A stretch of 64,000 nucleotides of DNA, taken from positions 32,001 to 96,000 of the IMG/VR virus record IMGVR_UViG_3300047160_020099. One strand, 5' to 3'. The DNA is from a virus. Positions 745 through 61,846 of the stretch are shown piece by piece; position 1 is the stretch's first letter, and every line of letters begins with the position of its first letter. The notes under the pieces are model-generated. The model made no database searches, was not told the DNA's origin, and saw only the letters and a list, made by a program, of their open reading frames with translations. The translations under genes were made by a program, and so were the position numbers.

Positions 745-1155
745 ATGAAAGCAACAGTATTCCAATACTTCGATCTTCACGCTGCCAGTCTGGACCGTCC
801 TGTCGCAGCAGATTGGCTTGAGGATCAGGGCTGGTACCCCATTGAGGCGGCAGCATTGAGAGGCAAGCTAGACTTGCCTGCGGAACCACATTCCTGTGAA
901 GAAACAGACCCTGACAGTATGGCTAGCGTGTATGCCTATCACGGCAATGGCGTTGGTGGCCTGGACGTGAATTTTAGCGGTGGTTGCGACCGGTCCATAA
1001 TTGAACACAAAGGTGCCGTGTCTACAAACGGCATAAGCGGACAGCAAGGCGGCATTGCTGACGGAGCTCAAGGCTACGACATTTACGATGCCGATGATGA
1101 TGCGGGAAATGCGGGCGATGAGACACCGGCCTGGCGTCCTGCGGCCGGCTGTTAG
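745..1155 (+). CDS. Hypothetical protein with TIGR02996-like ADWLE motif and Gly/Asp-rich tail; paralog of 1517-1909
   Basis: AGGAGG RBS; VFQYFDLHA..D.PVAADWLEDQG shared with the 1517 ORF. Confidence 0.75.
   Translation: MKATVFQYFDLHAASLDRPVAADWLEDQGWYPIEAAALRGKLDLPAEPHSCEETDPDSMASVYAYHGNGVGGLDVNFSGGCDRSIIEHKGAVSTNGISGQQGGIADGAQGYDIYDADDDAGNAGDETPAWRPAAGC
756..769. repeat. Dispersed 14-bp palindrome AGTATTCCAATACT
   Basis: Exact arms; lies in the first codons of ORF 745. Confidence 0.7.
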
Positions 1156-1178
1156 TGGTATTGAAATGAGGAGGAGAA

Positions 1179-1529
1179 ATGATAGGCGAATTCGTCCTAA
1201 TTAGAACGTACTCAGCTGGCGTACACATGGGTACGCTGGTCAGTTGTAATGGCACCGCGGTTTTGCTGGAAGCACCCGAGCTGCACATCAAAGACCCAAA
1301 GGAACGGGCCGCAGCGATGGCCAGGAATCCAGACAAGAAGGGGTGGCCCCGTCGGCTATGGCGGTGGCGTGGGGCAAACACTTTGCACGAGGTATCGCTA
1401 TACGGTATCGAGCCTGGCTCACGCATCAGCGAGCCGATCGAGCAGATCCTGCTGACTCAGGCCATCGAGGTCCTGGTGCCCACGGAAAAGGCTCGGGAGA
1501 CGTTGGAAGTTTCGGCATGGCCAGATTGA
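1179..1529 (+). CDS. DUF6948-like phage protein
   Basis: IRTYSAGVHMGTL...RRLWRWRGANTLHEVS...LTQAIE pattern; GAGGAGGAG RBS. Confidence 0.75.
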   Translation: MIGEFVLIRTYSAGVHMGTLVSCNGTAVLLEAPELHIKDPKERAAAMARNPDKKGWPRRLWRWRGANTLHEVSLYGIEPGSRISEPIEQILLTQAIEVLVPTEKARETLEVSAWPD

Positions 1530-1909
1530 TAGTATTCGAATACTTCGACCTTCATGCAGGCAGCATTGACTGGCCTATTGCTGCCGACTGGTTCGAGGAC
1601 CGCTACCCTGACCCTGTTCAACCAGCGGCCTTGCGTATCGCTCTTTTTCTTCCAGATCATATCAAGATGGCCATCCAGCACCACGATGAACGGGCGAGTG
1701 GTTCGGCCTGTGGCGCCGGTACAGGAAACGGTCGCGGTCATGCGGCCGGACCTGCGGCCAGTGGTGGCACATACGCTTGGGCCAATTCTTGTGGTACGGG
1801 TGACGGTGCTGGCCACATAGGCCTGGCCGGGTATGTTTATGGCGGTGGTACAGGCGACGGCAGCTCAGAAGGTGCCGACGACTCTGATATCCCACCCGGA
1901 GCTTTTTAA
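1517..1909 (+). CDS. Hypothetical protein, paralog of 745-1155 (start refined from track 1343)
   Basis: MARLIVFEYFDLHAGSIDWPIAADWFED aligns with the N-terminus of ORF 745; Gly-rich C-terminus. Confidence 0.7.
   Translation: MARLIVFEYFDLHAGSIDWPIAADWFEDRYPDPVQPAALRIALFLPDHIKMAIQHHDERASGSACGAGTGNGRGHAAGPAASGGTYAWANSCGTGDGAGHIGLAGYVYGGGTGDGSSEGADDSDIPPGAF
1531..1544. repeat. Dispersed 14-bp palindrome AGTATTCGAATACT
   Basis: Perfect palindrome at a gene junction. Confidence 0.7.
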
Positions 1910-1951
1910 GTAAGATGAGTTTCGTTCCTGTCCTATTTGGAGGGCCACATC

Positions 1952-2401
1952 ATGCCGAAGACCAAGATCACTGACGACGACGTTCTGCACGTGCTGAACG
2001 AAGCCGGATTGGATGCCGAGGACATCACGGCCTTTCGGATGGCCCGGCACCTCCTGTCGCACGGCGTGCCGGCCTGCTGTGTGTATTACCACATGGCCCT
2101 GGACACGGAAGTGCCTTCCCCGTCCGCCGAGCTGATCAACGAGCTGATGGCTGACAGCGGGCTGCTGGGGGCCTATGCCAACTGTACATTGGCCTCGTTC
2201 GCCCACGCGAACCGAGCACGTATTCTGGCCAAGAAGGCCCACGTCAACCTGCGGTATGTGCCCTGCCCCGCCTGTGTGCTGACGCGCAAGTTCGTCCGTC
2301 TGCCAAAGGGTTGTGGCTGCTGTCTGGACCGGAAGAAGCATCCCGGCACTGACTGCGACCCGCCTCCTGACGACACGACGGAGAAGGCTTCGACAGAATG
2401 A
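1952..2401 (+). CDS. Hypothetical protein with CxxC and Cys-rich C-terminus
   Basis: GGAGGG RBS before ATG 1952. Confidence 0.75.
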   Translation: MPKTKITDDDVLHVLNEAGLDAEDITAFRMARHLLSHGVPACCVYYHMALDTEVPSPSAELINELMADSGLLGAYANCTLASFAHANRARILAKKAHVNLRYVPCPACVLTRKFVRLPKGCGCCLDRKKHPGTDCDPPPDDTTEKASTE

Positions 2402-2407
2402 TCTGAT

Positions 2408-5070: not shown

Positions 5071-5625
5071 ATGCTGCCACTGAACTACGCGCTTGCATTG
5101 GCTTTACTGACAGCCGGCGGGCCGGACGAAGGCCCACTGGACTGCAAGGGCTACGGCACCCTTCTGCCTACGCTGCAAGACGTGGCGGTTTCGATCGAGG
5201 TTCTCGACAAACGTGAGCTACGCTACTGGCTAGCCAAGTACGAAGAACTGCCTCTTGACCTGCGCAACATACGGAAGCGCTGTCGGGAGCTAGGAGACGC
5301 ACCGCCTCTGGCAGAACACTGGCGTTTTCCTACCCGCGAGCTCCTGATCGAACAGAAAGGTTTCAACCGGGAATGCCACGCGTATCTCGAAGGGCAGCGG
5401 GAGATGGACTTCTTGCGACCGGGCTGGTACGTGGAACGGCTAGCAGAATTGGACAGGCTCTTACTGATATATGACAAGGCGACGGACGTGAAGACCGAGT
5501 ATTACTATACTACGGTCAGGCGAGGCGCCCTGAAAGATCTCCGCGAGCTGCTAGGCTGGAAGCGCTACAGCGAGGGAACGTTACCGCCTTGCGTGCCTGT
5601 GAACCTGTTTAGGGTGGCCAACTGA
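5071..5625 (+). CDS. Hypothetical protein with signal peptide, resembling Gemmataceae hypothetical proteins
   Basis: Hydrophobic N-terminus; DAPPL...RFP...RR.AL..LR..LG...Y..G.LPP.VP pattern recalled from planctomycete proteins, not searched. Confidence 0.75.
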   Translation: MLPLNYALALALLTAGGPDEGPLDCKGYGTLLPTLQDVAVSIEVLDKRELRYWLAKYEELPLDLRNIRKRCRELGDAPPLAEHWRFPTRELLIEQKGFNRECHAYLEGQREMDFLRPGWYVERLAELDRLLLIYDKATDVKTEYYYTTVRRGALKDLRELLGWKRYSEGTLPPCVPVNLFRVAN

Positions 5626-6557: not shown

Positions 6558-7538
6558 ATGACAGAGACATGGAAATCGCCGTTGGGTAAACGACCGAGAA
6601 CTTACAGTCCAGAATTCGAGCAAACAGTTTTACAAGCGTTCCGCGAGGGAAAATCCGCTTCAGATATCGGTCGCGAAACAAATAAGCCGGCTTACTTGAT
6701 TCGGCTCATTCTGCAACGGTTTGGACTTAAAGCATCCGTGAATCAGCGGAGAGGACCACAAGGAAAACCACCAGAGACCCAACAAGCTATCGTGGTTTTT
6801 TATCAGGAGCCTCATACGATTCACGCAACAATGGAGCGCTTTGGCATGTCATATGGAGGTATTCGCAAGATACTGTCCAAAAATAATGCGCTTCGTGGTG
6901 ATGAGGGTCGCCGAGCTTTTAGTCCAGACGAAGTAGCTGAAATGAAAAGGCTGTTTCTGGCTGGCACGTCGCTCTGTGAAATAGCTGAGCAATTCCACAC
7001 ATGCGCACGAACAACGGAACGCTGGCTACACGAGAACGGTGTTGAACTTCCGGTTAAAAAGGATCAGCGACGTACAGAATTAGCCGAAGGGGTGGCCGAG
7101 GCAATCAAAGCATTGTGGGCTGACGGCAATAACACCGGTACGATCGCAGAAGCGTGTGGATTGAAACGAGGAGCGGTGATCTGGTTTATACGACGCGAGG
7201 GATTGAGTCGTCCACGTAAAGATGGCCGTATTTTCCATCGCAGAGATGGTTATTGGTACATTCTTGTTCGCGCGGACGATCCTATGCACGCTATGGCTAA
7301 TACCAATAGCTATGTCCTTGAACACCGCCTCGTCGTGGCCCGCCACCTCGGCCGTCCGCTGACCCGGCACGAAACCGTTCACCACATCAACGGTGACAAG
7401 AACGACAACCGGCTGGACAACCTCCAGCTTCGCCACGGCAACCATGGGACTGGAATCGTTCTCCAGTGTCGCTGCTGTGGCTCAACCGATATCACCGAAC
7501 GACCTTTGGCCGTCAGTGAACTTAAACCAGGAGATTGA
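6558..7538 (+). CDS. Free-standing HNH homing endonuclease with multiple N-terminal HTH-like repeats
   Basis: YVLEHRLVVARHLGRPL...VHHINGDKNDNRLDNL motif; locally lower GC. Confidence 0.9.
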   Translation: MTETWKSPLGKRPRTYSPEFEQTVLQAFREGKSASDIGRETNKPAYLIRLILQRFGLKASVNQRRGPQGKPPETQQAIVVFYQEPHTIHATMERFGMSYGGIRKILSKNNALRGDEGRRAFSPDEVAEMKRLFLAGTSLCEIAEQFHTCARTTERWLHENGVELPVKKDQRRTELAEGVAEAIKALWADGNNTGTIAEACGLKRGAVIWFIRREGLSRPRKDGRIFHRRDGYWYILVRADDPMHAMANTNSYVLEHRLVVARHLGRPLTRHETVHHINGDKNDNRLDNLQLRHGNHGTGIVLQCRCCGSTDITERPLAVSELKPGD

Positions 7539-8786: not shown

Positions 8787-11700
8787 ATGGCCACTATTGC
8801 CTATGTTACCGGTCAGACAACCGGAACCTCAGCGGCCAGTGCCGCGTCTGTTCAGACATTGGGGATGCCCAATCCCCCGACGGTGGGCAATGTAGTAGTC
8901 GCCTTTTGTGCTGCATCAGCAGGCGCTGCTGCTGTTTATTCGGTTACTGACAACGCCTCTCCTCCCAACACTTTCAATCTGCTGGGCTCATTCGCCTCTT
9001 CCAGCAACCGTGACTCGCTAATCTACGCCGCCTACATTGCCACCAGTACAGTCGGCGCCAACTCCTACAAAGTAACCTTCAGTGAAACAGGCGGCTCTGG
9101 TCCTGGCCTACGAGTCTCTGCGCTTGAGTTCTCTGGGGTGAAAATATCAGGTTCTGCGCCCGTACAGGACGGTAGCTCCGTGGGCGCTACTGGTACAAGT
9201 TCCGCTCCTGCACCAGGCAACATGACAGTCAGTGCCGGAGACCTGGTGTTGGGCGTTTCGATCAACAGCTCGGGAACCTATACGGGTCCAACCGGCTGGA
9301 CCCAGGCGATGAATACTAGCACGAACCCGGCTAGTGACGGGGAATACATCATCAATCCGGCCTCGCCCACGAATCCTACATGGGGTTTGAGTGGTAGCTT
9401 CAGCTGGTCGGCGGTACAGGCGGCTCTTCTTGCGGCCCCGAGCGTCGTTACTATAGGCGGTACGGGAGGTTCAGTAACAGGCAGCGATTCCAGCGGCACC
9501 TATGTCCCAACGTTGTCGGGTGGTTCCGTTGGTGGCAGCAGCCCTGCAGTTCCTGCCACTTACAACCCAGCACCTTCAGGCGGAGCGATAGACGGCTCTG
9601 ACGGTTCACCTATCGACGTCCCGGGAATCAAAGGCGGAACCCTGGACGGGTCTGGCATAGGAGCCACAGCCACTTACACTCCGGCTCCATCAGGGGGTGA
9701 CATAGTTGGTACCACCGCAAACGTGCCCAACGCTGCTGCTAGTGTTACGTTGCTGGGCCATACAACCGCTACCAACGCTAGTGCCACATCGCTTATCGTC
9801 AACCGTCCAACAGGCGCGACCGTAGCTGGCAACATTTTGCGAGCCACGTTTGCATCTGGTACAACTAACGGCTTCACACCCGGTACGCCAAGTGGCTGGA
9901 CTCGGGTGATAGCTAACAACCTGGACTCCAACAATTACCTGTACGTTTTCGAGAAGGTTACGGGCGCCTCGGAGCCCACAACATACACCTTTACCCAAGG
10001 TGGCGCTAACGACAATATGGCCGTGATCCTGGCGTGCTACGGCGGAGCTGCCAGTATATCGGAAGCCCAGGCGACCAATAACTCAGGGCTCCCTGGTGTT
10101 ACGCCAACGGCCAATAGCGTAACCACGTTAGGTACGAATCGTCTCCTGTGTAGTGACTTCCTTGCCGACGGTGCCACGACCATCAGTCCACAAGGCTCAA
10201 TGACCAGCGTTGCTGGCACCATAGCTGTAGGTGCTATCTCACTCAACTGTGCCTATGAAACCGTGGCAGCTTCTGGCAGTACAGGTACACGCACGGCCAG
10301 CTACAGTCCCATAAAGACCTGGGCCACTTCGGCAGACGCTCTTCCTCCCGGTGGTGGAACAACCGGTACTCAGGCCATCTACAATCCGCCTCCTTCGGGC
10401 GGTACGGTTGATGGCAGCCAGGCCAGTCCAGCCTGGACTGATACTCCAGTTCCTTCGGGTGGTGACATAGTTGGCACCACTGTCGGCACGCAGGCCACCT
10501 ACAATCCTGCTCCTTCAGGCGGTTCGCTTGATGGCAGCAAAGCCAGCCCAGCCTGGACTGACACTCAGACTCCGTCTGGCGGGTCGCTAACCGGCACTAC
10601 CGCTAACGTTCCCACTGTTCCCACTCCAGCTCTACGTAGCTCTTCGACGCAACACGGGAGTGCTACTTCTCTCACCGTTAACAAACCGGCAGGCACACAG
10701 TCCGGCGACTTGTTGAGAGCTGTCGTATCGGTGAGTCAAGTAGGTGGTAGCTTCCCAGCCACGCCAACTGGTTGGTCAGTTGACGTCTCTACCCAAGACT
10801 ATGTCGGGAACACCTACACCACAGCTTTCTGGAAGATAGCCGGATCAAGTGAACCTAGCACGTACACGTTCACTCAGCCAGGTGTGGCAGACCACATGAT
10901 GGTCATCCTGGCCGCCTATACTGGCATTTCGGCTGGGCCAGAAGCTCACGTTGGCAACTACAACATTGCCAGTACAACAACTGCCACGGCAAACGGTGTC
11001 ACTACGCTGGGTGCATACCGGCTGCTTTGCTGCGACTTCATGCCCACTACAGCAGTCTCCATAACACCACAAGCTTCCATGACCAGTGTGGCGGGCACGG
11101 TCACGGAAGGTTACGCAATGAACTGTGCCTTCGAGATCGTGCCGGCAACGGGGGTTACTGGAAGCCGTACAGCCACACTCGGCTCAGCTTCGTCTAGCTC
11201 TGAAATCTCAAGTGCCTTCCCGCCCACCGGAGTTCCTTCGACTGGTACTCAGGCTACTTACAACCCAGCACCTGCTGGCGGCACGATCGATGGCAGTCAG
11301 GCCAGTCCGGCTGGAACGGACATTCAAACGCCGACTGGTGGAGACGTGATTGGCACTGTTGCCGACACTCCAACCATCTACAACCCGCCTCCTTCCGGCG
11401 GCTCACTTGATGGCAGCCAGGCCGATATAGCCAAGACCACTACGCCAGTACCGGCTGGTGGCACTCTTGATGGCTCACAAGCCGACGTATCTAGCAGCTA
11501 CGTGCCGACAGCAACCGGCGGCAGTTTGACAGGGTCTCAGGAAACATTGACCTTGCTGCCAGCACCGCAAGGGGGCAGCTCTGTTAGCTCACAAGCCAAT
11601 ACACCCAGCAGTTACGTACCAAAAGCTACTGGCGGTGGTTTGGAAGGAAGCGAAGCTGGCGTTGGTTCTGTTCCTCCAGTAATAGCTAGTGGCGGCAGTT

Positions 11701-12887
11701 TGGCTGGGTCTCAGGCAGCGACAACCTTGCTTCCAACGCTACAAGGTGGCGACCTTGCTGGAAGCCAGGCTGACGTGTCCAGCATTCCGCTGGTAACAGC
11801 TACCGGTGGTAGCCTGACAGGTTCTCAAGCACCACCGACTTTGCTTCCTGCACCGCAAGGTGGTAGTGCTGTCGGCAGCCAGGCCAACACAACCGGTACT
11901 TTGATAACACCCTCTGGCGGTGGTGTGGAAGGTTCCCAGGCTGACGAATCGAGTACTGCTCCTCCAGTCGTGGCTGTCGGCGGTAGTTTGACGGGGTCTC
12001 AAGGAACGATAACCTTGTTTCCGCCAACGCAAGGTGGAGAACTTGCTGGAAGCCAGGCTGGCGCTTTGACAACTGTTCCAACAACAGGCGGAACTGCAGA
12101 GGGTAGCACTGCGGCCGGTACGACAACTACGCCCACTGCAACGGGCGGCGGCCTTGACGGCTCACAAGCAGACAGTGGCCCGATTACAGCCCCTATCGCG
12201 ACAGGTGGCACTTCTGCTGGAAGTACAACAGCTCCAGGCACGGTTCCTGGAATATCAGGCGGTACGGTGGCTGGCAGCGTGGCTCAGCAGCTGCAAACGG
12301 CCAATCCACCACCTACCGGTGGAACAATAGCCGGCTCCTACGCCGATGCTGGTAGACCGGCCATCTACGTCATACCCATAGGCGGCACGATCACTGGCGC
12401 AATGAGTAGTCCAGCGGCCACTTATCCGTTGTCGGCCAAGGGAGGCGCTGTAACTGGTGGTACCGCTACTTCACCTTCTACCTTCGTGTCGAGGCCTACT
12501 GGTGGCGGGCTAACCAGCGGAATCAGTGACTGGATAATCATCAGAGTGAGCTTCCCCGAGGGTGGTTCGCTTGTCGGTAGTACGGCGAACGCCATCTCGG
12601 AGATTATTGCGGCCGGTGGAGGCGGTGGACTTACTGGCGGACAGGCCAGCTCCTTCCTGGTCGTGCAAGCTCACGGTGGTACGCTAGAGGGTGGTATTGT
12701 CACCCCGATCTTGCTGGTCACTCCACACGGAGGAAGCGTAGACGGCTCGCGAGTGGTAACGCACGGCCTGGTAATCATGCCAACTCGCGGTGGAAGCATA
12801 GTGGGCGGTCTGATGATGGTCATGATTCCGCCGCGCGGTACAGGCGCTGGAATTTTTATGGCCCCGGTAGAGTCCGTCTTCACATGA
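8787..12887 (+). CDS. Large S/T/G/P-rich virion fibre or decoration protein with ~19-aa GGxxxGS repeats and two related globular inserts
   Basis: Dozens of PxGGxxxGSQA units; two copies of SATSL.VN.P.G...G..LRA...P.GW...K..G.SEP.TYTFTQ. Confidence 0.8.
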   Translation: MATIAYVTGQTTGTSAASAASVQTLGMPNPPTVGNVVVAFCAASAGAAAVYSVTDNASPPNTFNLLGSFASSSNRDSLIYAAYIATSTVGANSYKVTFSETGGSGPGLRVSALEFSGVKISGSAPVQDGSSVGATGTSSAPAPGNMTVSAGDLVLGVSINSSGTYTGPTGWTQAMNTSTNPASDGEYIINPASPTNPTWGLSGSFSWSAVQAALLAAPSVVTIGGTGGSVTGSDSSGTYVPTLSGGSVGGSSPAVPATYNPAPSGGAIDGSDGSPIDVPGIKGGTLDGSGIGATATYTPAPSGGDIVGTTANVPNAAASVTLLGHTTATNASATSLIVNRPTGATVAGNILRATFASGTTNGFTPGTPSGWTRVIANNLDSNNYLYVFEKVTGASEPTTYTFTQGGANDNMAVILACYGGAASISEAQATNNSGLPGVTPTANSVTTLGTNRLLCSDFLADGATTISPQGSMTSVAGTIAVGAISLNCAYETVAASGSTGTRTASYSPIKTWATSADALPPGGGTTGTQAIYNPPPSGGTVDGSQASPAWTDTPVPSGGDIVGTTVGTQATYNPAPSGGSLDGSKASPAWTDTQTPSGGSLTGTTANVPTVPTPALRSSSTQHGSATSLTVNKPAGTQSGDLLRAVVSVSQVGGSFPATPTGWSVDVSTQDYVGNTYTTAFWKIAGSSEPSTYTFTQPGVADHMMVILAAYTGISAGPEAHVGNYNIASTTTATANGVTTLGAYRLLCCDFMPTTAVSITPQASMTSVAGTVTEGYAMNCAFEIVPATGVTGSRTATLGSASSSSEISSAFPPTGVPSTGTQATYNPAPAGGTIDGSQASPAGTDIQTPTGGDVIGTVADTPTIYNPPPSGGSLDGSQADIAKTTTPVPAGGTLDGSQADVSSSYVPTATGGSLTGSQETLTLLPAPQGGSSVSSQANTPSSYVPKATGGGLEGSEAGVGSVPPVIASGGSLAGSQAATTLLPTLQGGDLAGSQADVSSIPLVTATGGSLTGSQAPPTLLPAPQGGSAVGSQANTTGTLITPSGGGVEGSQADESSTAPPVVAVGGSLTGSQGTITLFPPTQGGELAGSQAGALTTVPTTGGTAEGSTAAGTTTTPTATGGGLDGSQADSGPITAPIATGGTSAGSTTAPGTVPGISGGTVAGSVAQQLQTANPPPTGGTIAGSYADAGRPAIYVIPIGGTITGAMSSPAATYPLSAKGGAVTGGTATSPSTFVSRPTGGGLTSGISDWIIIRVSFPEGGSLVGSTANAISEIIAAGGGGGLTGGQASSFLVVQAHGGTLEGGIVTPILLVTPHGGSVDGSRVVTHGLVIMPTRGGSIVGGLMMVMIPPRGTGAGIFMAPVESVFT

Positions 12888-14510: not shown

Positions 14511-14524
14511 AATATTGGAATACT
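14511..14524. repeat. Dispersed palindrome variant AATATTGGAATACT
   Basis: One mismatch; intergenic, ending 1 nt before the ATG at 14526. Confidence 0.65.
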
Positions 14525-20855: not shown

Positions 20856-21431
20856 ATGCCGGAAGTATTCGAATACTGCTCTGAGGAACGGCGGATGGTC
20901 GAGACAACGACCAAGAAATGTCGTCGTTGCAAAGAGGTGAAGCCGCTGGCGGAGTTCAACAGGCAGCAACGAACCCCTGATGGCTTGAACTACTATTGCC
21001 GGCAGTGCCAGAGCGAATGGAACCGGAAATGGGCAGCCGAGTTGTCTGAAGAGAAGCGGGAGGCTCGCAAGAAATACAATCAAGAATGGCGAGATAGCCA
21101 TCGTGACAGACTGCGAGCCAAACAGCCCCGAAATCAGCGCAAGTCGAATTACGGGCTAGATGACACGATCTATCAACAGATGCTTCGTGATCAGAATGGC
21201 CGATGTGCGATTTGCGGTGAGCTGGAGACAACGGAACTGCGAGGTAAAGTTTGGAGTCTCTCGGTTGATCACGATCACGTAACCGGACAGATACGTGGGC
21301 TGCTGTGCAGGCGATGTAACTCCATGCTTGGACACGTTCAAGATAATCCAAGCTTGCTGGAGAAAGCGATAGCTTATCTCCTTAAACACCAACCGACCGA
21401 CATGGTCGTGCCTCCGAATAAGGGAGATTAA
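20856..21431 (+). CDS. Endonuclease VII-family (His-Me) free-standing endonuclease
   Basis: KCRRCKEVKPL.EF...YCRQC N-terminus; QNGRCAICG...SVDHDHVTGQIRGLLCRRCN motif. Confidence 0.92.
   Translation: MPEVFEYCSEERRMVETTTKKCRRCKEVKPLAEFNRQQRTPDGLNYYCRQCQSEWNRKWAAELSEEKREARKKYNQEWRDSHRDRLRAKQPRNQRKSNYGLDDTIYQQMLRDQNGRCAICGELETTELRGKVWSLSVDHDHVTGQIRGLLCRRCNSMLGHVQDNPSLLEKAIAYLLKHQPTDMVVPPNKGD
20864..20877. repeat. Dispersed 14-bp palindrome AGTATTCGAATACT
   Basis: Perfect palindrome at the sheath/endonuclease junction. Confidence 0.7.
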
Positions 21432-21968: not shown

Positions 21969-21982
21969 AGTATTGGAATACT
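21969..21982. repeat. Dispersed 14-bp palindrome AGTATTGGAATACT
   Basis: Exact arms; intergenic. Confidence 0.7.
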
Positions 21983-28765: not shown

Positions 28766-29560
28766 ATGGTTAATCACCTGCGAACCTGTTTGCTGAACGT
28801 CAACGGTAGCTTGTCGCCATCGCCTGCATATCCCGGCGAGGAGTACGTGCCACCTACCTACGTGGCGAAGTTTTTGCCTGGCGAGCTAGCACAGGGCTAC
28901 GAGCTGCTCTTCGGCCTGCAGCCAGATCGAGCCTTGATGAACTATAACCTTCGGGCCTTGCTCGACATGCTTCACGCGTCTGAGCTGGAGTCGCACGTAC
29001 TGGCGTTGGACCCGCGTATCACGTACATGCCGCCCAAGACAGACCTATTCGATCTGGTAGCCAGCGGTGCCGTGATAACGCAACTGGCCGGTACGCAGAC
29101 GCTCACGTTTGCTGGCGGCAACGCTGTCAGTCAGGTCGGCAATAACATCAGCTTCCGCTGGCAAGTGGCTGTACTGGATAGCTCGCACGTCCAGGTGACC
29201 CAGTATTCGAATACTTTCACGTCCGCAGTGACGACCATCCTTCCTTACACAGTCAGCAACGGTCTTTCTTGCCCGATCGCCTTGCCTGGCTCCAGCTTGT
29301 CTGTCCACTTCACAGCAGGAACAGGTAGCTCATGGCAGATTGACGCAATGGCCAGACCGGCACTCGACATACCAGCACTTTCGTACGGGTTGTCAACCAG
29401 TCTGACCGCCGACATGGCTGACGCTATCTTCGGCCCAGTTGGCTCGCCGGAGCCCTACAAGACCTTCCGCAACTTGTGGGAGATGCACGACCAGCTACCC
29501 TACCGGTTGGGTGGCTTGGTGTTAGCTCTCGGTTACCAGATAGACAGCTTGAAGAAATGA
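28766..29560 (+). CDS. Hypothetical tail or baseplate protein
   Basis: Tightly packed in the tail operon. Confidence 0.7.
   Translation: MVNHLRTCLLNVNGSLSPSPAYPGEEYVPPTYVAKFLPGELAQGYELLFGLQPDRALMNYNLRALLDMLHASELESHVLALDPRITYMPPKTDLFDLVASGAVITQLAGTQTLTFAGGNAVSQVGNNISFRWQVAVLDSSHVQVTQYSNTFTSAVTTILPYTVSNGLSCPIALPGSSLSVHFTAGTGSSWQIDAMARPALDIPALSYGLSTSLTADMADAIFGPVGSPEPYKTFRNLWEMHDQLPYRLGGLVLALGYQIDSLKK
29202..29215. repeat. Dispersed 14-bp palindrome AGTATTCGAATACT
   Basis: Perfect palindrome inside a CDS. Confidence 0.7.
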
Positions 29561-34986: not shown

Positions 34987-35844
34987 GTGATTCGTTATCT
35001 CACCTGTCTGTTTCTGACCATCGCGGCGTTTGGCACGGCACTGGTGTACATCCCAACCGCGCCGGCCGGAACAGAAGCAGCCCAGAAGGGGGAAGATGCA
35101 CCCACCAAGGTCATGCCGCCGGCCAAAGAAGACGCCGAACCACCGATGCCAATGGCATCACCGCCAGGCGCTGCTGCCGGCGCCTTGCCAGACGACGGTG
35201 AGTTCAAGGAGATGAAGATCCCGGACACCAACAAAGTTGCCGGGTTGACGCTCACGCCGGATCAGACCGTTTCTGCCGCGAAACGTTTCGCCATCGTCCG
35301 TGCCACTACCGACAAGCCCGATCAGAAGGTGCGCTGGATCGTGCTGGGCGCGTTGCCGGGTCTCCAGCCCAGCTCGCTCGTATCGCCCAGCGGTCGGAGT
35401 ATTCTAATATTCCCGGCCGGTTATGCTGACCTGATCGTCGTGATGGCGTACAGCTCTACCGCGGACGGGCCTACAGACGTCGCCGTCAGCAAACTCGCTG
35501 TGGAAGGCCCGCTGGCGCCTTCTCCACAGCAACCAGCTACCAAACCGCCAGTCACAGGTAAGCTGCACGTCACGGTCGTCATCGACCTTGCCAAGCAGAC
35601 GCCTGAACTGGCGGCCATGCGAGCTTCCAAGGCCTTCCGTGACTTCCTTGGGAAAGAGAACTGCGTGTACCACGAGTGCAACCCGGCCACTGTGCCGGCC
35701 GACATAGGGGCTGCACTGAAGAAGGCTGGTCTCCCGTACCCGGCAGTCGTCATCCAGAATGCTGCCGGTGACATCGAGGAAAAGGCCACGTTTCTTACGG
35801 CCGAAGATGTAACAGGCCTTGTGGAACGAGTACGAGGTAAGTAA
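34987..35844 (+). CDS. Exported or membrane-anchored protein with Pro-rich linker and possible thioredoxin-like C-domain (no CxxC)
   Basis: AAGGAG RBS, GTG start, hydrophobic N-terminus; GLPYPAVVIQ.A.G.I C-terminal pattern. Confidence 0.75.
   Translation: MIRYLTCLFLTIAAFGTALVYIPTAPAGTEAAQKGEDAPTKVMPPAKEDAEPPMPMASPPGAAAGALPDDGEFKEMKIPDTNKVAGLTLTPDQTVSAAKRFAIVRATTDKPDQKVRWIVLGALPGLQPSSLVSPSGRSILIFPAGYADLIVVMAYSSTADGPTDVAVSKLAVEGPLAPSPQQPATKPPVTGKLHVTVVIDLAKQTPELAAMRASKAFRDFLGKENCVYHECNPATVPADIGAALKKAGLPYPAVVIQNAAGDIEEKATFLTAEDVTGLVERVRGK
35398..35411. repeat. Dispersed palindrome variant AGTATTCTAATATT
   Basis: One mismatch; inside a CDS, using AT-rich codons ATT CTA ATA. Confidence 0.6.
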
Positions 35845-41114: not shown

Positions 41115-41249
41115 ATGCCTCATGTGCTCATTGCGGCTGTCTTGTTGCTGGTCGTGCTGGCAGTTGCAGGCTCGCGCGACAAGGAGTACGAGGGCAAGCC
41201 AGTCATCCTGCCGTTCAAGCGACCCGACAGGAAGGGTAATTCGGCATGA
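41115..41249 (+). CDS. Small single-pass membrane protein (44 aa)
   Basis: TAAGGAG RBS; hydrophobic N-half; ATGA overlap with next gene. Confidence 0.6.
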   Translation: MPHVLIAAVLLLVVLAVAGSRDKEYEGKPVILPFKRPDRKGNSA

Positions 41250-41893
41250 CGCCTCTCAAGAAACGCTGGCGACGCCTGGAGAAGCGAGTACCAGGGCTGT
41301 ACGTCAATCCGGATATCTGTCATGGGCGGTATCAGATCTACCGGATTGACGAGGCTACCGGCCACTGGGACTTCTTGTTCTCCAAAGAGAACCTGGTCCT
41401 GTACACCTGGGGCTACCTTGCCTGCCAGTGCATTGGCCGTGGTAATCCAGCCTACGCTGTGGCAGCCGCTTACCTGGAGTACATGAACGTCGTTACAGCG
41501 GGCACCGTGGTAACGCCGCCTACCTACGACCGCTCGGCCGGCCTATCCTATTTCAGCGGCTTGCCAGTCAACAAGGATTATCTGCGTGTGCCGCTCGTTG
41601 GACTGCCAACGATTGACATTGCTCCTGGCTATGAGCCGTACTTCGTCTCTGGCTCAACCGGCAACCGTGCAACATTCGTTGCACAAAGCACCGGTACTGT
41701 GGGAGTGAACGGCCAACCTTACTCGGCGGCTGCGTTGTCCACAGTCTATGGTGTCACGCTTGTTGCTACACCAGTGCAGAACACACCTGCCGACGACATC
41801 ATCCTGAGTCGTGGGTATTTCAATACTAACGACCAGCAGTTGAAGCAGGACGGCAGCCAGATCGGCGTCCGCTGGAAGATCAGTTTCCAATGA
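41246..41893 (+). CDS. Putative baseplate or tail-fibre attachment protein
   Basis: NLVL..., DYLRVPL, K....QIGVRW.I.F C-terminal pattern; precedes the fibre gene. Confidence 0.6.
41814..41827. repeat. Dispersed palindrome variant GGTATTTCAATACT
   Basis: One mismatch; inside a CDS. Confidence 0.6.
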
Positions 41894-43334: not shown

Positions 43335-43796
43335 ATGCGAGGCGAATATACAGTATCGGTTGCACTTACCGGCGTGGGACCCCCGGCCACCATTCCAGCA
43401 ACGCTGCTTTTGCTCAAAACACCATCAGCTGCAATAGTTGAGGTGCTGGAAGCCTGGATCCAGTCCGAAGACGGTATTGCTCAGCAGATATCTGGGGCTC
43501 TATCCAGAGTTGCTAGTCCTGGCTCGCCAGCTGGCTCGACAGTTACGCCCGAGAAGATGGAGCCCGGCGATCAGGCTAGTGGTTGTACTGTGATCGTTAA
43601 TGTCGAACCTACTGGCAGCTATGACGGCGTTCCTGTTGACTGGCAAGGGGCACCAGCAACCTCTGGCTATCTGTTCAGTGAACCGGTTGGAATGGGCGCC
43701 TTCGCAGCTCCGAGCACCGGCATCGGGCTGAGGATCGAAGAGATCACAACTGCTGGCAATTTCATCGTCGGGCTGCGCTGGGTCGAACACGGATGA
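43335..43796 (+). CDS. Hypothetical, probably structural protein
   Basis: GAGGA RBS; beta-rich. Confidence 0.7.
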   Translation: MRGEYTVSVALTGVGPPATIPATLLLLKTPSAAIVEVLEAWIQSEDGIAQQISGALSRVASPGSPAGSTVTPEKMEPGDQASGCTVIVNVEPTGSYDGVPVDWQGAPATSGYLFSEPVGMGAFAAPSTGIGLRIEEITTAGNFIVGLRWVEHG

Positions 43797-43809
43797 GTAT
43801 TCCGATACT
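43796..43809. repeat. Dispersed palindrome variant AGTATTCCGATACT
   Basis: One mismatch; overlaps a TGA stop. Confidence 0.65.
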
Positions 43810-45778: not shown

Positions 45779-45834
45779 ATTTCATCCATCTTTGTCTTGT
45801 AGGACGACCTTTGCTTTACATATTGGGGAACCCA

Positions 45835-46640: not shown

Positions 46641-47346
46641 GAATCGTCTGGCGACCTTCTGGCGCGATCCTCAGATGTTTGGCTTCAACCTCCTGGTATT
46701 GTTCATGGACGTCTACGGAGCCGAAGGCCTCAACTGGATGCCTGAGACTATCGAGATGGAGATCCGCGACGACAGTGGCGTCGATCTGCCGGAAGCCAAC
46801 TTCGACAAGCTGCTGACAGCCATTTCTCTTCTTGTCACTGACAACTTCTTCGTGAGCCCGACAGACTTCACACGAGCGTGTGTGGTCCTGTCAGGCCATG
46901 TCGTGAACCCCGGTTCTCTGATCCTGCCCGACTGTGCCGATCTGGCCTGGGGCCTCACCGAAGGCATGATGATCAATCCACCTGACGAAGATAACGAGGC
47001 ACCCTTCTCGAAAGAGATTGTTGCTTACGTAGGTGCGTGTCTGAATGACGAAGGTATTCTGAACCCTCCTGATATCCTGCGTATCGGCCTCCGTGACAAA
47101 GATTTGGCTGACAACGCACGGTACAGCTTTTCCGACGACCCGGAGATGATGGCGGCGATTTCTGGCTTCGAAGAAGACAAGACGTCGTCCATCAACTCTC
47201 TGGTTCTCAACCGGCTCAAGGACCTGTTCGCGCAACTCCAGTTGTTGCCCCTCAAGAACGGTCAGGCCGTTGCTGTAGCACGGAAGATGATGGCCGGGCT
47301 GGCCCATCAACCCGCTAGCGGCTCACCGCTAAATTCACCCGTTTGA
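46615..47346 (+). CDS. Hypothetical acidic protein
   Basis: AGGAG RBS; 243 aa. Confidence 0.78.
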   Translation: MPSEYQLLENRLATFWRDPQMFGFNLLVLFMDVYGAEGLNWMPETIEMEIRDDSGVDLPEANFDKLLTAISLLVTDNFFVSPTDFTRACVVLSGHVVNPGSLILPDCADLAWGLTEGMMINPPDEDNEAPFSKEIVAYVGACLNDEGILNPPDILRIGLRDKDLADNARYSFSDDPEMMAAISGFEEDKTSSINSLVLNRLKDLFAQLQLLPLKNGQAVAVARKMMAGLAHQPASGSPLNSPV

Positions 47347-47359
47347 GTATTGGAATACA
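47346..47359. repeat. Dispersed palindrome variant AGTATTGGAATACA
   Basis: One mismatch; overlaps a TGA stop, upstream of the AAA ATPase. Confidence 0.65.
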
Positions 47360-47411: not shown

Positions 47412-50099
47412 ATGAAGACATCGTTCGTTGATGACCTGGTTTACAAGTTCAAGTCCGGCTTCCCGGTTACTGCCGTCAATACGACAGAGACAGACCGCTG
47501 TATCCAGGAGATCAAGACTGCCGGCTGGTTGATGGGTGAAGGTTGCAAGGTCACACTCACGCCAGCTGACCGCAACCTGTTCAAGACCCTGTTCAACACG
47601 TATACGGAATACAGCTGCCCGCTGACACCTTCTGGCGAGTTGACTGCGGACATCAAGAAGCTGGTCGCTCTCATGCGACGGCTTTGCCACGAGAAGTCCG
47701 AGGCCGCGGCAGACGTTGACCGACTGCTCGATACGGTCGGCTACCCGGTCATTACCTGGAGCCATACCGGGGGCTTCGATAACGGCGCCGGCGACGTCGA
47801 GCTGGACCAGGCGCTGGTCATGGCGGCCCAACCGTATGACAGCAAGGCACGCGACAAGAACCCGCTGCCGCGCTTTTGCATCCTTGTGTACAAGAACGCG
47901 AACGAGTTTCTGGACCCGCCCGGCCCGGAGTGTGCCCGTTTCCGCTCAGCACTACACACCATCTTCTGCGGCAACCGGCTCGTTGACGGCAGCATCCGGC
48001 GGCTGGTTATCATGCTCCAGCCAGACTGGACGCCGCACACACAGATCGCTCACTGCGTCAACTTCGTGGAGTTCGAGCCACCGAACGAGGAGCAGCTCTC
48101 CCACGAAGTCACGTATGTCGAGGAGTCGTTGCAGTCTTCCAAGCGGGACGTGGTGAAGACCTGCCCGACCGAGCTGCGTAAGCCCATCATTACGGCACTG
48201 CGAGGTTTCACCCAGCACGAAGCCGTGAATGCGCTGGCCTACTGCATCGTCAAGCATCGTGGCTTCTGCCCAGACATGGTACCCACCTTGCACGGGCTGA
48301 AAGCCGAGACCTTGAAGCGGGACGAGGTCCTGGAGTACATCGACGCCGAGTACCTGGCCACCACGGATCAGATCGGCGGCTACGAGAACTACCTGGAATT
48401 CATCAGCGAGTGCCAGGAGTGCTACACGGACGAGGCGGCCAAGGCTGGACTAAAGAAGCCCAAGGGCGTGCTGCTCCTGGGCCTTCCTGGATGCGTAGCT
48501 GAAGACACGATGGTCTCTTACCGTCGGGGTAAACGAACCGGCAACAGAAGTTTGCCGATCAACGTCTTTTGCGACAAGGTGAATGGCACCGAACATCATC
48601 ATGCTGGCGTGAAATGGAAGCCAGGATTGGATACGTATTTGCAATCCTTCAACCCGGAGACTGGAAGGATCTTCTATAACCTAGTCAAAGGTGTTTACAA
48701 GAAGGGGCGTAAACATTGCATACGTATCATCACCGATAACGCTGGCTCAGTCACCCTGACCGATGACCATCCAATTATGACGGCTGAGATTATTTTCAAA
48801 GCCGCCGGTGAACTACGAGTTGGTGATAAGCTTCTGGTGCGTGGCAATATGCACCCCACTAAGTTGGCCAATAAGACGGCTCCAAAACATAAACGCCGGG
48901 TCACGGTTGAAACTCTTAAATATCACCCTCGCGGCTGGCCTCATCCGGTAAAAGAGCCAACGACCGGTAAGGTTTACACCTATCTGCGGCAGCACCGAGC
49001 CAGGCTGGTGCTAGAAGCACATATGAACGGATTGGCCTATGAAGAATTCATCCGAATTCTGCAGAAAGAGCCGACAACGGCTTCAGCATTGAAGTATCTC
49101 GAAGATGGTTTGGAGGTTCATCATCAGAACGAAGATCCAACCGACGACCGTCTGGAAAATCTGCTGGTACTGACAAAGCCGGCTCATACGAAGTTGCACT
49201 GTGATGAAAGTCGTTTCAACGTTGCGTATACAACTGAAGCGACTATTACCGGGATCGAAGCTGTCGGTTACCGCGAGACATATGACGTTTCCATGGAAGA
49301 TCCGTACGCCAACTTCGTGGTTAATGATGGGATCATAGCCCATAACACTGGGAAAAGTATGGTGGGCATGGCCACCGCCCGCATCATGAGCCTGCCGCTT
49401 GTGAAGTATGACTTCGGCAGTGTATTCGGTGGCATCGTCGGCCAGAGCGAAAGCACCCAGCGTCGCGTGTTGAAGCGGGTGACAGCTCTCGGCCCGTGCG
49501 TCCTGCTGATCGACGAGGCGGATAAGGCCTTTGCCGGGATGGACCAGACCATCGGTGATTCCGGCACCGGCCAGCGTGTCTTCGGGCGGCTCCTTACATG
49601 GATGGCCACCGAGAACACGGATGCGTTCATCGTGATGACCATGAACCGGCTGAAGGGTGTCCCCGTCGAGATGCTGCGTGCCGGCCGGCTCGACGCCACT
49701 TTCTACACCGAGTTCCCCAGTCCACCAGAGCGGCAAGAGATCCTGGCCATTCACATGAGGAAGAATGGCGTGGATCCCAACTGCTTCGACCGCAACGACT
49801 GGAAGACCCTGGTCAATATCACGGAAGACTTTGCCGGCGCCGAGTTGGAACAGCTCGTCATCAAGGCCGTACGCACTGCCTGGAAGGCAACCAAACTGGT
49901 GCAGCCGAAGATAGCCCACCTGGAGGCCGCGCGGGTCTCTGTGAACCCGGTCGCGCACCTTGACAGAGAGGGCATGCAGAAGATCCTCGAATTTTGCCAG
50001 GACAAGGCCACGCCTGTCAGCAAGAAGAAGCGTATCGCCAAGTCGCAGGTTGGTCGGCTGCGAAGCAGCATCCTGGTTGACAACCCGGAGAACAACTAA
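47412..50099 (+). CDS. Ycf46-like AAA+ ATPase with an intein in the Walker A motif
   Basis: IGGYEN, PKGVLLLGLPG/TGKS, VGQSE, LLIDEADK, RAGRLD; GGAG RBS before ATG 47412. Confidence 0.9.
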   Translation: MKTSFVDDLVYKFKSGFPVTAVNTTETDRCIQEIKTAGWLMGEGCKVTLTPADRNLFKTLFNTYTEYSCPLTPSGELTADIKKLVALMRRLCHEKSEAAADVDRLLDTVGYPVITWSHTGGFDNGAGDVELDQALVMAAQPYDSKARDKNPLPRFCILVYKNANEFLDPPGPECARFRSALHTIFCGNRLVDGSIRRLVIMLQPDWTPHTQIAHCVNFVEFEPPNEEQLSHEVTYVEESLQSSKRDVVKTCPTELRKPIITALRGFTQHEAVNALAYCIVKHRGFCPDMVPTLHGLKAETLKRDEVLEYIDAEYLATTDQIGGYENYLEFISECQECYTDEAAKAGLKKPKGVLLLGLPGCVAEDTMVSYRRGKRTGNRSLPINVFCDKVNGTEHHHAGVKWKPGLDTYLQSFNPETGRIFYNLVKGVYKKGRKHCIRIITDNAGSVTLTDDHPIMTAEIIFKAAGELRVGDKLLVRGNMHPTKLANKTAPKHKRRVTVETLKYHPRGWPHPVKEPTTGKVYTYLRQHRARLVLEAHMNGLAYEEFIRILQKEPTTASALKYLEDGLEVHHQNEDPTDDRLENLLVLTKPAHTKLHCDESRFNVAYTTEATITGIEAVGYRETYDVSMEDPYANFVVNDGIIAHNTGKSMVGMATARIMSLPLVKYDFGSVFGGIVGQSESTQRRVLKRVTALGPCVLLIDEADKAFAGMDQTIGDSGTGQRVFGRLLTWMATENTDAFIVMTMNRLKGVPVEMLRAGRLDATFYTEFPSPPERQEILAIHMRKNGVDPNCFDRNDWKTLVNITEDFAGAELEQLVIKAVRTAWKATKLVQPKIAHLEAARVSVNPVAHLDREGMQKILEFCQDKATPVSKKKRIAKSQVGRLRSSILVDNPENN
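48492..49346 (+). mobile_element. Intein (285 aa) carrying an HNH endonuclease
   Basis: Starts CVAEDT; block B LTDDHPI; ends TYDVSM...NFVVNDGIIAHN with Thr at +1; internal VHHQNEDPTDDRLENL; lower GC. Confidence 0.93.
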
Positions 50100-53709: not shown

Positions 53710-53852
53710 AAGGTGTCAAGGGACGACAGTGCCTGAAGGTAACCGAAGGACTGGAACAGTCGCTCGGTGGTAAGGTTGTAAGCCGCGACGCAACTGCTGA
53801 CATGTTGCCTCTCGGTAGCACCACCACAACGACCGCCAAAGTCACGCACTGA
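53655..53852 (+). CDS. DUF2997 protein
   Basis: GGAGG RBS; EITITI...G...IEV.G..G..C...T..LEQ.LG. Confidence 0.82.
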   Translation: MQEITITIDRLGKPTIEVKGVKGRQCLKVTEGLEQSLGGKVVSRDATADMLPLGSTTTTTAKVTH

Positions 53853-54115
53853 TGGACGTCACGCTGTTCATCGGCCGTGACGGCAGTTTGACATTCCTGT
53901 ACGACGACATCCTTATGCAAGCCCTTCGTGAGCTGGGTCCTGCCAGCACGCGAAGGGCTTCTAACGTTGAGCCCACTACAGACGGTAAACACTGGCTCGC
54001 CGACATGTCGCCCACAGCCGGCCGACCAGTAACTCTTGGTCCTTTCGAGACCCGCCAGGAAGCTCTGGATGCCGAGGCAAATTGGCTCCTGAACTTTCTG
54101 GTGGGCACCATATGA
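53852..54115 (+). CDS. Conserved hypothetical protein usually adjacent to DUF2997
   Basis: DG....LY.D....LG....RRAS.VEP..DG..W.AD.SP..G...LGPF..R.EAL.AE..WL. Confidence 0.78.
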   Translation: MDVTLFIGRDGSLTFLYDDILMQALRELGPASTRRASNVEPTTDGKHWLADMSPTAGRPVTLGPFETRQEALDAEANWLLNFLVGTI

Positions 54116-54120: not shown

Positions 54121-54134
54121 AGTATTCGAATACT
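54121..54134. repeat. Dispersed 14-bp palindrome AGTATTCGAATACT
   Basis: Perfect palindrome; intergenic. Confidence 0.7.
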
Positions 54135-58957: not shown

Positions 58958-58958
58958 C

Positions 58959-61253: not shown

Positions 61254-61337
61254 TGTTTCCCCATATGTTTGACAGACTGTCATCCGACAGCTGTCCGTTT
61301 CGTCACACGTTACCAGCTACCTAGCTTTGAGGTAACC

Positions 61338-61505
61338 ATGTCCAAGCGTGATTCTGACTCTCTGGTTGTCAACCTCGCCGGTCCGGTTGTCGTGAGCGGT
61401 TTGATCATTGCCGCTAGCGGTGGTGGTTTCATGCCGCTTCTGGGCATGCTGTTCGGTCTCTATCTTAGCAGCAACGCCCTCAAGGAGGTTGATAGGCATA
61501 AATAA
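61338..61505 (+). CDS. Small membrane protein
   Basis: GAGGT RBS; two hydrophobic stretches. Confidence 0.65.
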   Translation: MSKRDSDSLVVNLAGPVVVSGLIIAASGGGFMPLLGMLFGLYLSSNALKEVDRHK

Positions 61506-61516
61506 GGAGGTAACGG

Positions 61517-61837
61517 TTGAGTGAGATCGTGATCTTGGCGCTGGCAGTGCTCTCGCTGCATACAGCGTGGTATGAGGGCAGCATGTTCGCTGTCTGGCGA
61601 GAGCATGTCGAAGCCTGGCGAGGGTTGAGCGGCTACAAAAAGCCGCTCGCCTTCGTCGGCGAACTGCTAGGCTGCAAGTTGTGCATGTCGATCTGGCTGG
61701 CCATCCTGCTGGCCGTCTTGTTCAAGCTGACGCCTGCCGTCTTCGGCGGCTGGTGGGTTCGTATATGCGATGCCCTGCTGGCTGCTCTGGCCGCGGCGGC
61801 ACTCATCCAGGTCTATCACCACTGGCTGGATGAGTAG
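61517..61837 (+). CDS. DUF1360-like membrane protein
   Basis: TAAGGAGGT RBS; TTG start; GELLGCKLCMSIW motif; three hydrophobic segments. Confidence 0.72.
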   Translation: MSEIVILALAVLSLHTAWYEGSMFAVWREHVEAWRGLSGYKKPLAFVGELLGCKLCMSIWLAILLAVLFKLTPAVFGGWWVRICDALLAALAAAALIQVYHHWLDE

Positions 61838-61846
61838 TGCAATACT
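61833..61846. repeat. Dispersed palindrome variant AGTAGTGCAATACT
   Basis: One mismatch; overlaps a TAG stop. Confidence 0.6.

Follow-up and report, generated by a model that had tools for sequence, protein, structure and literature searches.

The window analyzed here is a 64,000-nucleotide (nt) stretch, bases 32001-96000, of a 161,936-bp IMG/VR viral contig (record IMGVR_UViG_3300047160_020099; GC 0.578; estimated completeness 78%). A simple codon-model caller identified 183 genes on the contig at a coding density of 90%, and 172 of these are on the + strand. The contig encodes a bacterial-type RNA polymerase (RNAP) as two proteins: a 1964-amino acid (aa) fusion of beta with the N-terminal part of beta', and a 625-aa protein that contains the C-terminal part of beta' (beta'C). 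Dispersed over the contig, between and within genes, is a 14-bp palindrome with the pattern AGTATTNNAATACT, written here as AGTATT-SS-AATACT (S, G or C). A preliminary description of the window, made from its letters, had listed six exact copies and seven copies with one mismatch, and all 13 coordinates and sequences were correct when checked (Table 1). The number was also far above chance as claimed, with dinucleotide-preserving shuffles of the window giving 0.00 exact and 0.02 one-mismatch copies.

Table 1. Copies of the palindrome in the window and other features of the contig. Positions are those of the window unless given as contig positions.
Feature	Position	Context
Exact copy, AGTATTCCAATACT	756..769	Codons 4-8 of gene 745-1155, first of two tandem paralogs
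Exact copy, AGTATTCGAATACT	1531..1544	2 nt past stop of 1179-1529; codons 5-9 of paralog 1517-1909
One-mismatch copy (A9T)	5498..5511	Deep within coding sequence 5071-5625
One-mismatch copy (G2A)	14511..14524	Junction; 12 nt past stop of 13576-14499, 1 nt before ATG of 14526-15359
Exact copy	20864..20877	Junction; 16 nt past stop of 1546-aa gene, 17 nt before in-frame ATG 20895 (endonuclease VII gene start, preceded by GAGGAA)
Exact copy	21969..21982	Directly past terminator-like hairpin; 12 nt before ATG 21995 of 860-aa gene
Exact copy	29202..29215	Deep within coding sequence ending 29560
One-mismatch copy (C13T)	35398..35411	Deep within coding sequence 34987-35844
One-mismatch copy (A1G)	41814..41827	Within coding sequence 41246-41893, 66 nt before stop
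One-mismatch copy (A9G)	43796..43809	First base is last base of TGA stop of 43335-43796
One-mismatch copy (T14A)	47346..47359	Overlaps stop of 46615-47346; 52 nt before AAA-ATPase/HNH gene 47412
Exact copy	54121..54134	Junction; 6 nt past stop of 53852-54115, 18 nt before ATG 54153
One-mismatch copy (T5G)	61833..61846	Contains TAG stop of 61517-61837; 13 nt before ATG 61860, which GGAGAGG precedes
Terminator and AT-rich promoter-like stretch	590-740	Upstream of the tandem paralog pair
Sigma-like gene	31295-32026	Baseplate region
Stretch without called gene	45272-45834 (contig 77272-77834)	563 nt in an otherwise packed region
895-aa HNH_3/AAA+ protein gene	47412-50099	
RNAP genes	contig C1:3591-9485 and 10527-12404	Outside window
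81-aa protein gene (L118)	contig C1:10247-10492	Between RNAP genes
88-aa helix-turn-helix protein gene (P0121)	contig 110119-110385	Outside window

Over the whole contig, which starts 90 bp upstream of its first site and lacks about 22% of the genome, there were 19 exact copies, 18 with one mismatch and only 2 with two mismatches, whereas none were expected by chance. Given this spectrum, the set of sites is sharply bounded. AGTATT-NN-AATACT was the sole enriched palindrome of the genome in a screen of the 6-N-6 form, and an intergenic 7-mer screen returned the motif as the only recurrent signal besides Shine-Dalgarno sequences and T-runs. The first two copies in the window lie in tandem paralogs with a common N-terminus (..VF[EQ]YFDLHA..), where the palindrome occupies codons 4-9 of each. 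Because these two copies have the same codon position (V-F-E/Q-Y), they were inherited through the gene duplication and are not independent.

Column counts over 30 nt of flank contained no information beyond the 14 bp except a weak G at -1 and a weak C at +1. The central two bases were G or C in 27 of 37 copies, and the centers CC, GG, CG and GC were about equally frequent (CC 7, GG 6). The arms were invariant in sequence, and no compensatory double changes occurred within the genome. Among the one-mismatch variants, G2A, which breaks pairing, was found four times and C13T, which keeps it, once; pairing-preserving (G.U) changes were present in 3 of the 18 one-mismatch copies as compared to 6 of the 36 possible substitutions, and were not enriched. 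Because CC and GG centers are equally frequent and pairing-preserving variants are not favored, the element is recognized as duplex DNA with two-fold symmetry. An exact dyad of this kind fits the earlier suggestion of a dimeric DNA-binding protein that acts across the genome. Outside of full sites, the half-site AATACT was counted 21 times on the + strand of the contig and its complement AGTATT 10 times.

The sites were overrepresented at gene junctions. Fifteen of 37 were not fully within a coding sequence (CDS), compared to 10.8% of positions (P = 2.8e-6), and about 10 of the approximately 16 junction sites of the genome were 10-21 nt from an ATG. In the window, 9 of the 13 sites are at gene boundaries, with 3 overlapping stop codons, as had been described. 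Contig-wide, the 22 intragenic copies are located in the longest genes and are spread over all three reading frames. The preliminary description had singled out four window copies deep inside CDSs in different frames; all four were confirmed, but only two frames are represented among them. Its conclusion that the constraint is on DNA rather than protein held nonetheless. Synonymous codons were shuffled within each gene 200 times, and the enrichment persisted, with 12 exact and 10 one-mismatch intragenic copies observed compared to 0.135 and 1.23 after shuffling. Since the intragenic copies exceed these shuffles, selection acts on the DNA and not on the protein. In the beta'C gene, for example, the conserved residues RRNIEI are spelled with the rare, AT-rich synonymous codons AAT ATT GAA ATA CT, and three relatives encode the same residues with other codons.

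Relatives were sampled as approximately 25 kb around the RNAP gene from six metagenomic homologues and 21 IMG/VR loci, together with two whole records, G001 (62 kb) and G002 (94 kb), for which the reversed pattern served as the control. All of the genome records were incomplete (31-78%). AGTATT-NN-AATACT was found in none of the sampled loci, and an exact-motif scan of IMG/VR gave only single chance matches in low-GC contigs, with no above-chance multiple relaxed copies. However, the nearest relatives, with a fused beta-beta' RNAP of 61-70% identity, carry the core AGTA-N6-TACT. There were 4, 3, 4 and 2 core sites in the 22-27-kb loci L125, L128, L132 and L133 (0.44, 0.10, 0.45 and 0.24 expected, respectively), 8 in G001 (control 1) and 9 in G002 (control 2). 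The core is kept in 6 genomes, and L131 has a symmetric variant of it; conservation in related phages, which the preliminary description had named as a check, was seen for the core within this subclade and not for the exact word. Relatives with 49-59% identity in beta'C had 0-1 core copies. Searches of 20 loci from distant relatives, and of a 175-kb phage contig that had been deposited as a metagenome-assembled genome, did not reveal any other consistent palindrome.

The GC content of the motif-bearing relatives ranges from 47 to 64%. In those with lower GC, the inner six bases are an A- or T-tract in either orientation (for example, AGTAATTTTTTACT), and in several relatives just 4 bp per arm are kept, position 5/10 often being unpaired (A..C in G002). 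Two sites are orthologous between genomes. One is upstream of a gene for a 150-180-aa protein with the residues ..GRHYRF.. in 7 of 7 subclade genomes (contig site 91), and the other is upstream of a gene for a protein of about 315 aa with ..RPPDWRW.. in 4 genomes (contig site 19980). L131, which is without AGTA-N6-TACT, has AGCTTT-CT-AAAACT and AGTTTT-AG-AAAACT at exactly these two positions; the change is symmetric in both arms, as would be expected if the specificity of a dimer had shifted. These data establish that the motif of this phage is a lineage-specific long form of the clade-conserved core and that the core is an ancestral feature of the subclade. This phage lengthened the arms to 6+6 with an S-S center, roughly doubled the copy number, and added copies inside long genes. 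The ortholog of CDS 5071-5625 in G002 has the motif upstream (G002:70120) and not internally, and a zinc-ribbon gene with an N-terminus similar to that of the endonuclease VII gene has the core upstream in both G001 and G002. Orthology of the endonuclease VII gene with the G002 zinc-ribbon gene is tentative (33% by tblastn; the reverse search was empty).

Two further observations concern the relatives. Locus L126 (GC 0.68) has a perfect palindrome, AGTTTC-CG-GAAACT, at 7484-7497, the very start of its ortholog of the GRHYRF gene; L126 is otherwise without the motif, and this copy may be a chance occurrence (about 0.4 expected). In addition, genes for proteins of about 150 aa with the N-terminus MKITEIRV.., SpoVG-like by eye, have the core upstream at G001:9208, G002:957 and G002:1889; the motif there includes an A-rich hexamer, with a sigma70-like TTGCAA 17 nt upstream of the hexamer. 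These genes are tandemly duplicated in G002, and no homologue was found in the contig studied here.

In G001 and G002, 15 of 19 sites are at gene junctions. Most of these junctions have 9-17 nt between the end of the motif and the ATG, and a Shine-Dalgarno sequence of the GGAG type follows the motif at a distance of 0-5 nt. At L132:6832 and G002:59867 the genes begin 1-3 nt past the motif without a Shine-Dalgarno sequence, and these starts were confirmed by ortholog alignment; the gene at L132:20559 also begins in this manner. A clear intrinsic terminator was seen by eye 0-13 nt before the site at G002:70120, L132:623, L132:20559, window 21969 and contig 128933. This tight tie of the core to gene starts in the relatives points to transcription control rather than segregation.

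We tentatively favor, while granting that the other readings together could well be right, the interpretation that a homodimeric protein, encoded by the phage, recognizes the motif as duplex DNA and marks points of transcription start or restart. Within a subclade of large, uncultured phages with their own fused beta-beta' RNAP, the site is an ancestral element acting in cis. The homodimer would bind AGTA and TACT, one helical turn apart across a deformable spacer, and, positioned directly before the ribosome-binding site, would define the points at which transcription of the phage begins or resumes; the 5' end of the RNA would then fall a few bases downstream of the motif. The sites would punctuate an almost entirely one-directional transcription map, and the extra copies inside long genes of this phage leave no stretch of more than 9 kb without a site. 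This interpretation is ranked first because the sites sit tightly before ribosome-binding sites, because no other intergenic signal recurs besides Shine-Dalgarno sequences and T-runs, and because the word and the phage's own polymerase are conserved together. Genes that begin 1-3 nt past the motif without a Shine-Dalgarno sequence are as expected if the RNA starts just after the motif, and the arrangements of terminator, motif and gene leave no room for another promoter. The density (one site per 4.5-9 kb) and the one-strand layout also resemble the promoter maps of phages with their own RNAP (T7, T4).

Several results weigh against a start signal. A perfect dyad with no conserved flanks holds no directional information, and the known promoters of multisubunit or T7-type RNAPs are asymmetric. 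Twenty-two of the 37 copies are fully within CDSs, with no bias to gene 3' ends. The two genes with sites 756 and 1531 in their codons 4-9 have a promoter-like region of their own upstream; site 756 is about 100 nt downstream of that terminator and AT-rich stretch and so cannot be the promoter of gene 745-1155, and the pair, being downstream of a separate promoter-like region, are not those genes' promoters. A strict scan for intrinsic terminators was positive at 1 of 37 sites of this genome; most sites do not follow a terminator, and a general association with intrinsic terminators was rejected. Beyond the two orthologous sites, most positions are not kept gene by gene, which fits a spacing-driven function as well as a regulon. 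Lastly, no binding protein was found among the candidates considered below, and the only helix-turn-helix (HTH) protein of the contig is without a counterpart in the relatives' partial records.

The fixed position 0-5 nt upstream of the Shine-Dalgarno sequence in the relatives could also suit an element that acts in RNA, such as a hairpin or AU-rich patch beside the ribosome-binding site with a role in translation, mRNA stability or processing, in the manner of the start-associated sequences of Cluster K mycobacteriophages discussed below. Hairpins were predicted at -2.5 to -7.7 kcal/mol with flanks, with z down to -3.0 at two L132 sites, and a T-run center was somewhat more common on the coding strand (about 15 vs 6-7 by manual count). 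However, the window hairpins are weak (-3.7 to -5.6 kcal/mol with flanks, z -0.9 to -2.2), and several relatives keep only 4 bp per arm with position 5/10 often unpaired. The one-mismatch variants are not enriched for G.U-preserving changes, the arms of this genome are invariant without compensatory double changes, and 22 intragenic copies have no start sites after them. We consider a function in RNA very unlikely.

The spacing of the sites gives a different view of the element. The preliminary description had noted quasi-regular spacing in the window, and this is real over the whole contig, where the 36 gaps average 4483 bp with a coefficient of variation (CV) of 0.48, compared to 0.97 for random placement; a CV of 0.48 was reached in 0 of 200,000 random-placement simulations. 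The largest gap is 9.0 kb vs 17.8 kb expected (P = 4e-4), and very short and very long gaps are both depleted. Exact copies alone had a CV of 0.78, which indicates that the one-mismatch copies fill gaps between exact copies. The relatives G001 and G002 are also evenly spaced (CV 0.39, P = 0.0095, and CV 0.385, P = 0.0013, respectively). Additionally, the long RNAP genes of four genomes have one internal copy each, at no fewer than three (at least 3) different positions.

One explanation is that the sites organize or load the genome, either as evenly spaced anchors for a spreading, sliding or bridging protein or as reload points for an RNAP processivity factor, with the preference for junctions reflecting only the lower cost of an AT-rich word outside coding sequence. 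ParB/parS, KorB/OB, Noc/NBS and a condensin loader are the models for such sites, and the 14-bp palindrome format is like that of parS, NBS and OB sites. Even spacing in three genomes (P < 5e-6 for this contig), gap filling by one-mismatch copies, the retention of spacing while most positions are not gene-conserved, and the independent gain of internal copies by long genes are all consistent with this explanation. However, it does not require the near-fixed position before ribosome-binding sites in the relatives. The parS-like idea of the preliminary description also fared poorly, in that a six-frame search for ParB_N (PF02195) found no match in the 162-kb contig or in the motif-bearing relatives G001 and G002, whose records, like that of the contig, are incomplete (31-78%), and L128 gave a weak match only. 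Likewise, the SMC_N/AAA_23 match on the contig may be a repair ATPase of the Rad50/SbcC type rather than a condensin, judging from an exonuclease match. Taken together, we regard organizing sites as unlikely.

A related possibility, to which we give a little more weight but which we still doubt, is a spacing-constrained system in which contact between a dimeric phage factor and the genome is needed at least once per 9-12 kb and selection writes sites into long genes through synonymous codons. The factor would be either a self-contained, symmetric initiator for the bacterial-type phage RNAP or a point of reloading or anchoring that sustains transcription or genome handling over the approximately 200 kb of a one-directional genome.

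The preliminary description had also compared the sites to stoperators, and a dimeric phage repressor on the dyads could halt elongating RNAP at junctions and in long genes, silencing or timing the one-directional genome in whole blocks. The stoperators of Cluster A mycobacteriophages are asymmetric 13-bp sites, oriented with transcription and bound by a monomer with two DNA-binding domains, that serve in prophage silencing (PMC9283540). As with L5 gp71 and its relatives, there are many 13-14-bp copies genome-wide, typically between a stop codon and the next start and, for stoperators, bound by a phage protein that acts on transcription (PMC9283540). The sites studied here similarly occupy the short intervals that separate a stop codon from the ribosome-binding site of the following gene, 3 of them in the window overlapping stops, and the excess outside CDSs (15 of 37 vs 10.8%) agrees with stoperator placement (PMC9283540), yet 22 of 37 are intragenic. 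The intragenic copies in the longest genes, with the RNAP genes of four genomes each having an internal copy, would suit a roadblock, as would the position of sites 756 and 1531 just downstream of a promoter-like region; depletion of short and long gaps would be expected if read-through must stop within a few kb. In contrast to the asymmetric, orientation-dependent, monomer-bound and lysogeny-serving stoperators (PMC9283540), the motif is a perfect dyad with CC and GG centers equally frequent and no flank asymmetry. Neither Phage_integrase nor Resolvase domains, nor a repressor with an HTH and a stoperator domain, were found in the 162 kb of this record (78% complete), and the phage has its own RNAP. 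The analogy therefore stood with respect to short intergenic placement and failed with respect to asymmetry, orientation dependence and temperate lifestyle. A roadblock also leaves unexplained the 0-5 nt spacing to the Shine-Dalgarno sequence in the relatives and the genes that begin 1-3 nt past the motif. Its probability is low in our estimation. Both a roadblock and organizing sites explain the spacing and the intragenic copies better, and the start-proximal placement worse, than a start signal does.

The contig was searched for a protein that could bind the motif. Its only HTH protein is an 88-aa XRE-type HTH_3 protein, P0121, which has only one weak homologue among 5.8 billion proteins, a HigA-type antitoxin beside a ParE-like gene. 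No site flanks its gene. The protein was absent from the partial records of five relatives, three of which are distant relatives without the motif, and the HTH_3 domain was not found in four of the five. A homodimer prediction, with a score of 0.09, counts neither for nor against binding. P0121 fits the site geometry but was rejected as an orphan that has no adjacent site and was not detected in the relatives' partial records. Other candidates were sought among proteins present in the subclade and absent from distant relatives. One was an 81-aa protein, without a Pfam match, whose gene lies between those of the RNAP. It is kept at 37-51% in 6 of 6 close relatives that were checked, searches of two distant relatives did not detect it, and it was modeled as a small beta-rich domain for which the PDB held no match. 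This protein may be an RNAP accessory subunit. It was rejected as the binder; L126 encodes it as well, and the 24 kb of L126 that were examined are free of the motif. Also rejected was the GRHYRF protein, the gene of which is always preceded by the motif; its model, a beta-sheet and three long helices, had no PDB match. ParB was rejected as a partner, ParB_N not having been found in the contig, G001 or G002.

The repertoire of nucleases on the contig raises the possibility that the dyads are preferred targets of a phage resolvase or endonuclease, or boundary sequences that aid module exchange. Endonuclease VII, a RuvC-like protein and several HNH proteins are encoded, and the motif precedes the endonuclease VII gene here and the similar zinc-ribbon gene in two relatives. 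Tandem duplications with the motif at each repeat boundary (window 756 and 1531; G002 957 and 1889) would also agree with such a role. On the other hand, junction resolvases are structure-specific and not sequence-specific, a 14-bp AT-rich dyad is too short for stable extrusion, nothing links these enzymes to the word, and the start-proximal placement is left unexplained. The RuvC cleavage consensus, (A/T)TT|(G/C), fits the center of the motif here but not the centers in the relatives, and was dropped. LexA boxes of xanthomonads and cyanobacteria, which have arms resembling AGTA/TACT at a different spacing, were set aside. Deletions between copies have been reported for the repeats of Cluster O mycobacteriophages (PMC4351075), a further point in favor of recombination. 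We find this the least probable of the explanations and would be surprised if it were correct.

Among known systems, phage-specific promoters differ from the motif in that the recognition sequence here is symmetric and without conserved flanks; as to distance, the ATG is 9-17 nt past the end of the motif at most junction sites of the relatives, and in this phage 22 of 37 copies are intragenic. Operators of the 434 Cro/CI type are 14 bp (ACAA-N6-TTGT), with a spacer that acts through DNA shape. The motif has the same 4-6-4 geometry, with tetranucleotides one helical turn apart, and the contig encodes an HTH_3 (434 Cro-like) protein. However, the sites here are single and evenly spread, unlike classical operators, which are grouped next to the repressor gene at one or two promoters. 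In addition, the HTH_3 gene has no adjacent site, and HTH_3 was not found in the relatives' records. Dispersed repressor sites do exist in P1 (C1) and phiC31 (conserved inverted repeats). The ParB family has dispersed palindromes that are bound by dimers and can act at a distance, including RK2 KorB/OB, Bacillus subtilis Noc/NBS and the centromeres of the phage-plasmid N15. These 13-16-bp palindromes are likewise scattered over the replicon, some within genes; unlike them, the motif has no ParB_N protein detected with it (contig and two relatives), and start-proximal placement is not a feature of ParB systems.

The closest precedent is the dyad repeat of Cluster O mycobacteriophages, as an analogue and not a homologue. 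This 17-bp dyad, 5'-TGTTCGG-NNN-CCGAACA, has 34 copies with invariant arms in Corndog; its authors inferred a dimeric binder and left the function unexplained (PMC4351075). Each repeat is present in over 30 copies per genome, with inverted arms that hardly vary around a variable center, which is A/T-rich in Cluster O as it is in the relatives of this phage (PMC4351075). Both occur in short intergenic spaces, at gene 5' ends and in gene interiors, have no orientation preference, and were not found in other phage groups (PMC4351075). However, sequence, lineage and host are unrelated, and the Cluster O copies crowd to one genome end while the spacing here is even. Also unlike Cluster O, the core is common to diverged relatives (61-70% RNAP identity, GC 47-64%), is associated with gene starts, and accompanies a phage-encoded RNAP. 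A second comparison is with the start-associated sequences (SAS) and extended SAS (ESAS) of Cluster K, which are asymmetric, contain a Shine-Dalgarno core, lie 3-7 bp from the start codon, and are confined to one genome half (PMC3203893). SAS and the motif are both repeated words a few bases upstream of the starts of unrelated genes, conserved across subclusters or relatives while the associated genes differ (PMC3203893). Unlike SAS, the motif is a dyad without GGAG that lies upstream of a separate Shine-Dalgarno sequence, is found genome-wide, and is often intragenic in this phage.

The phage itself is highly novel, and most of its large proteins have no Pfam or PHROG match. Megablast gave no match to cultured phages, tblastn with beta'C found no cultured relative above 30% identity, and the 1546-aa structural protein had no match in IMG/VR. 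Metagenomes contain over 1000 homologues of the RNAP fusion protein, with a top identity of 63-68%, on contigs of up to about 224 kb; many of the homologues are interrupted by inteins or LAGLIDADG domains. Other genes of the contig encode a family A DNA polymerase, ThyX, dCTP deaminase, a D12-class methyltransferase, the SMC_N/AAA_23 ATPase, a gpA-type terminase, and a Ro60-like protein. The sigma-like gene in the window has a Pfam Sigma70_r3 match from a batch scan and is kept at 43-50% in G002, G004 and G005; a one-mismatch core motif precedes the G002 ortholog. The 895-aa protein has an HNH_3 endonuclease segment (residues ~560-600) and a C-terminal AAA+ ATPase and matches phrog_8638, of unassigned function, at 5e-80.

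Dispersed dyad repeats are known from Cluster O mycobacteriophages but have never been explained. In the clade described here, the core is conserved across divergent uncultured phages while the inner bases and arm length evolve, so that binder and site could be traced by co-variation, and the statistically regular spacing in three genomes provides a testable handle. The clade encodes its own bacterial-type RNAP with a fused beta-beta' subunit, the promoters of which have not yet been described. If the dyad is a start signal or control point for that RNAP, the sites would provide a first transcription map of the clade, as well as a compact orthogonal part for use as a promoter or operator. If it is instead a spacing-driven loading site, it would represent a new principle of phage genome organization. 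With either form of the factor, a spacing-constrained system would punctuate the phage genome in a way that has not previously been described.

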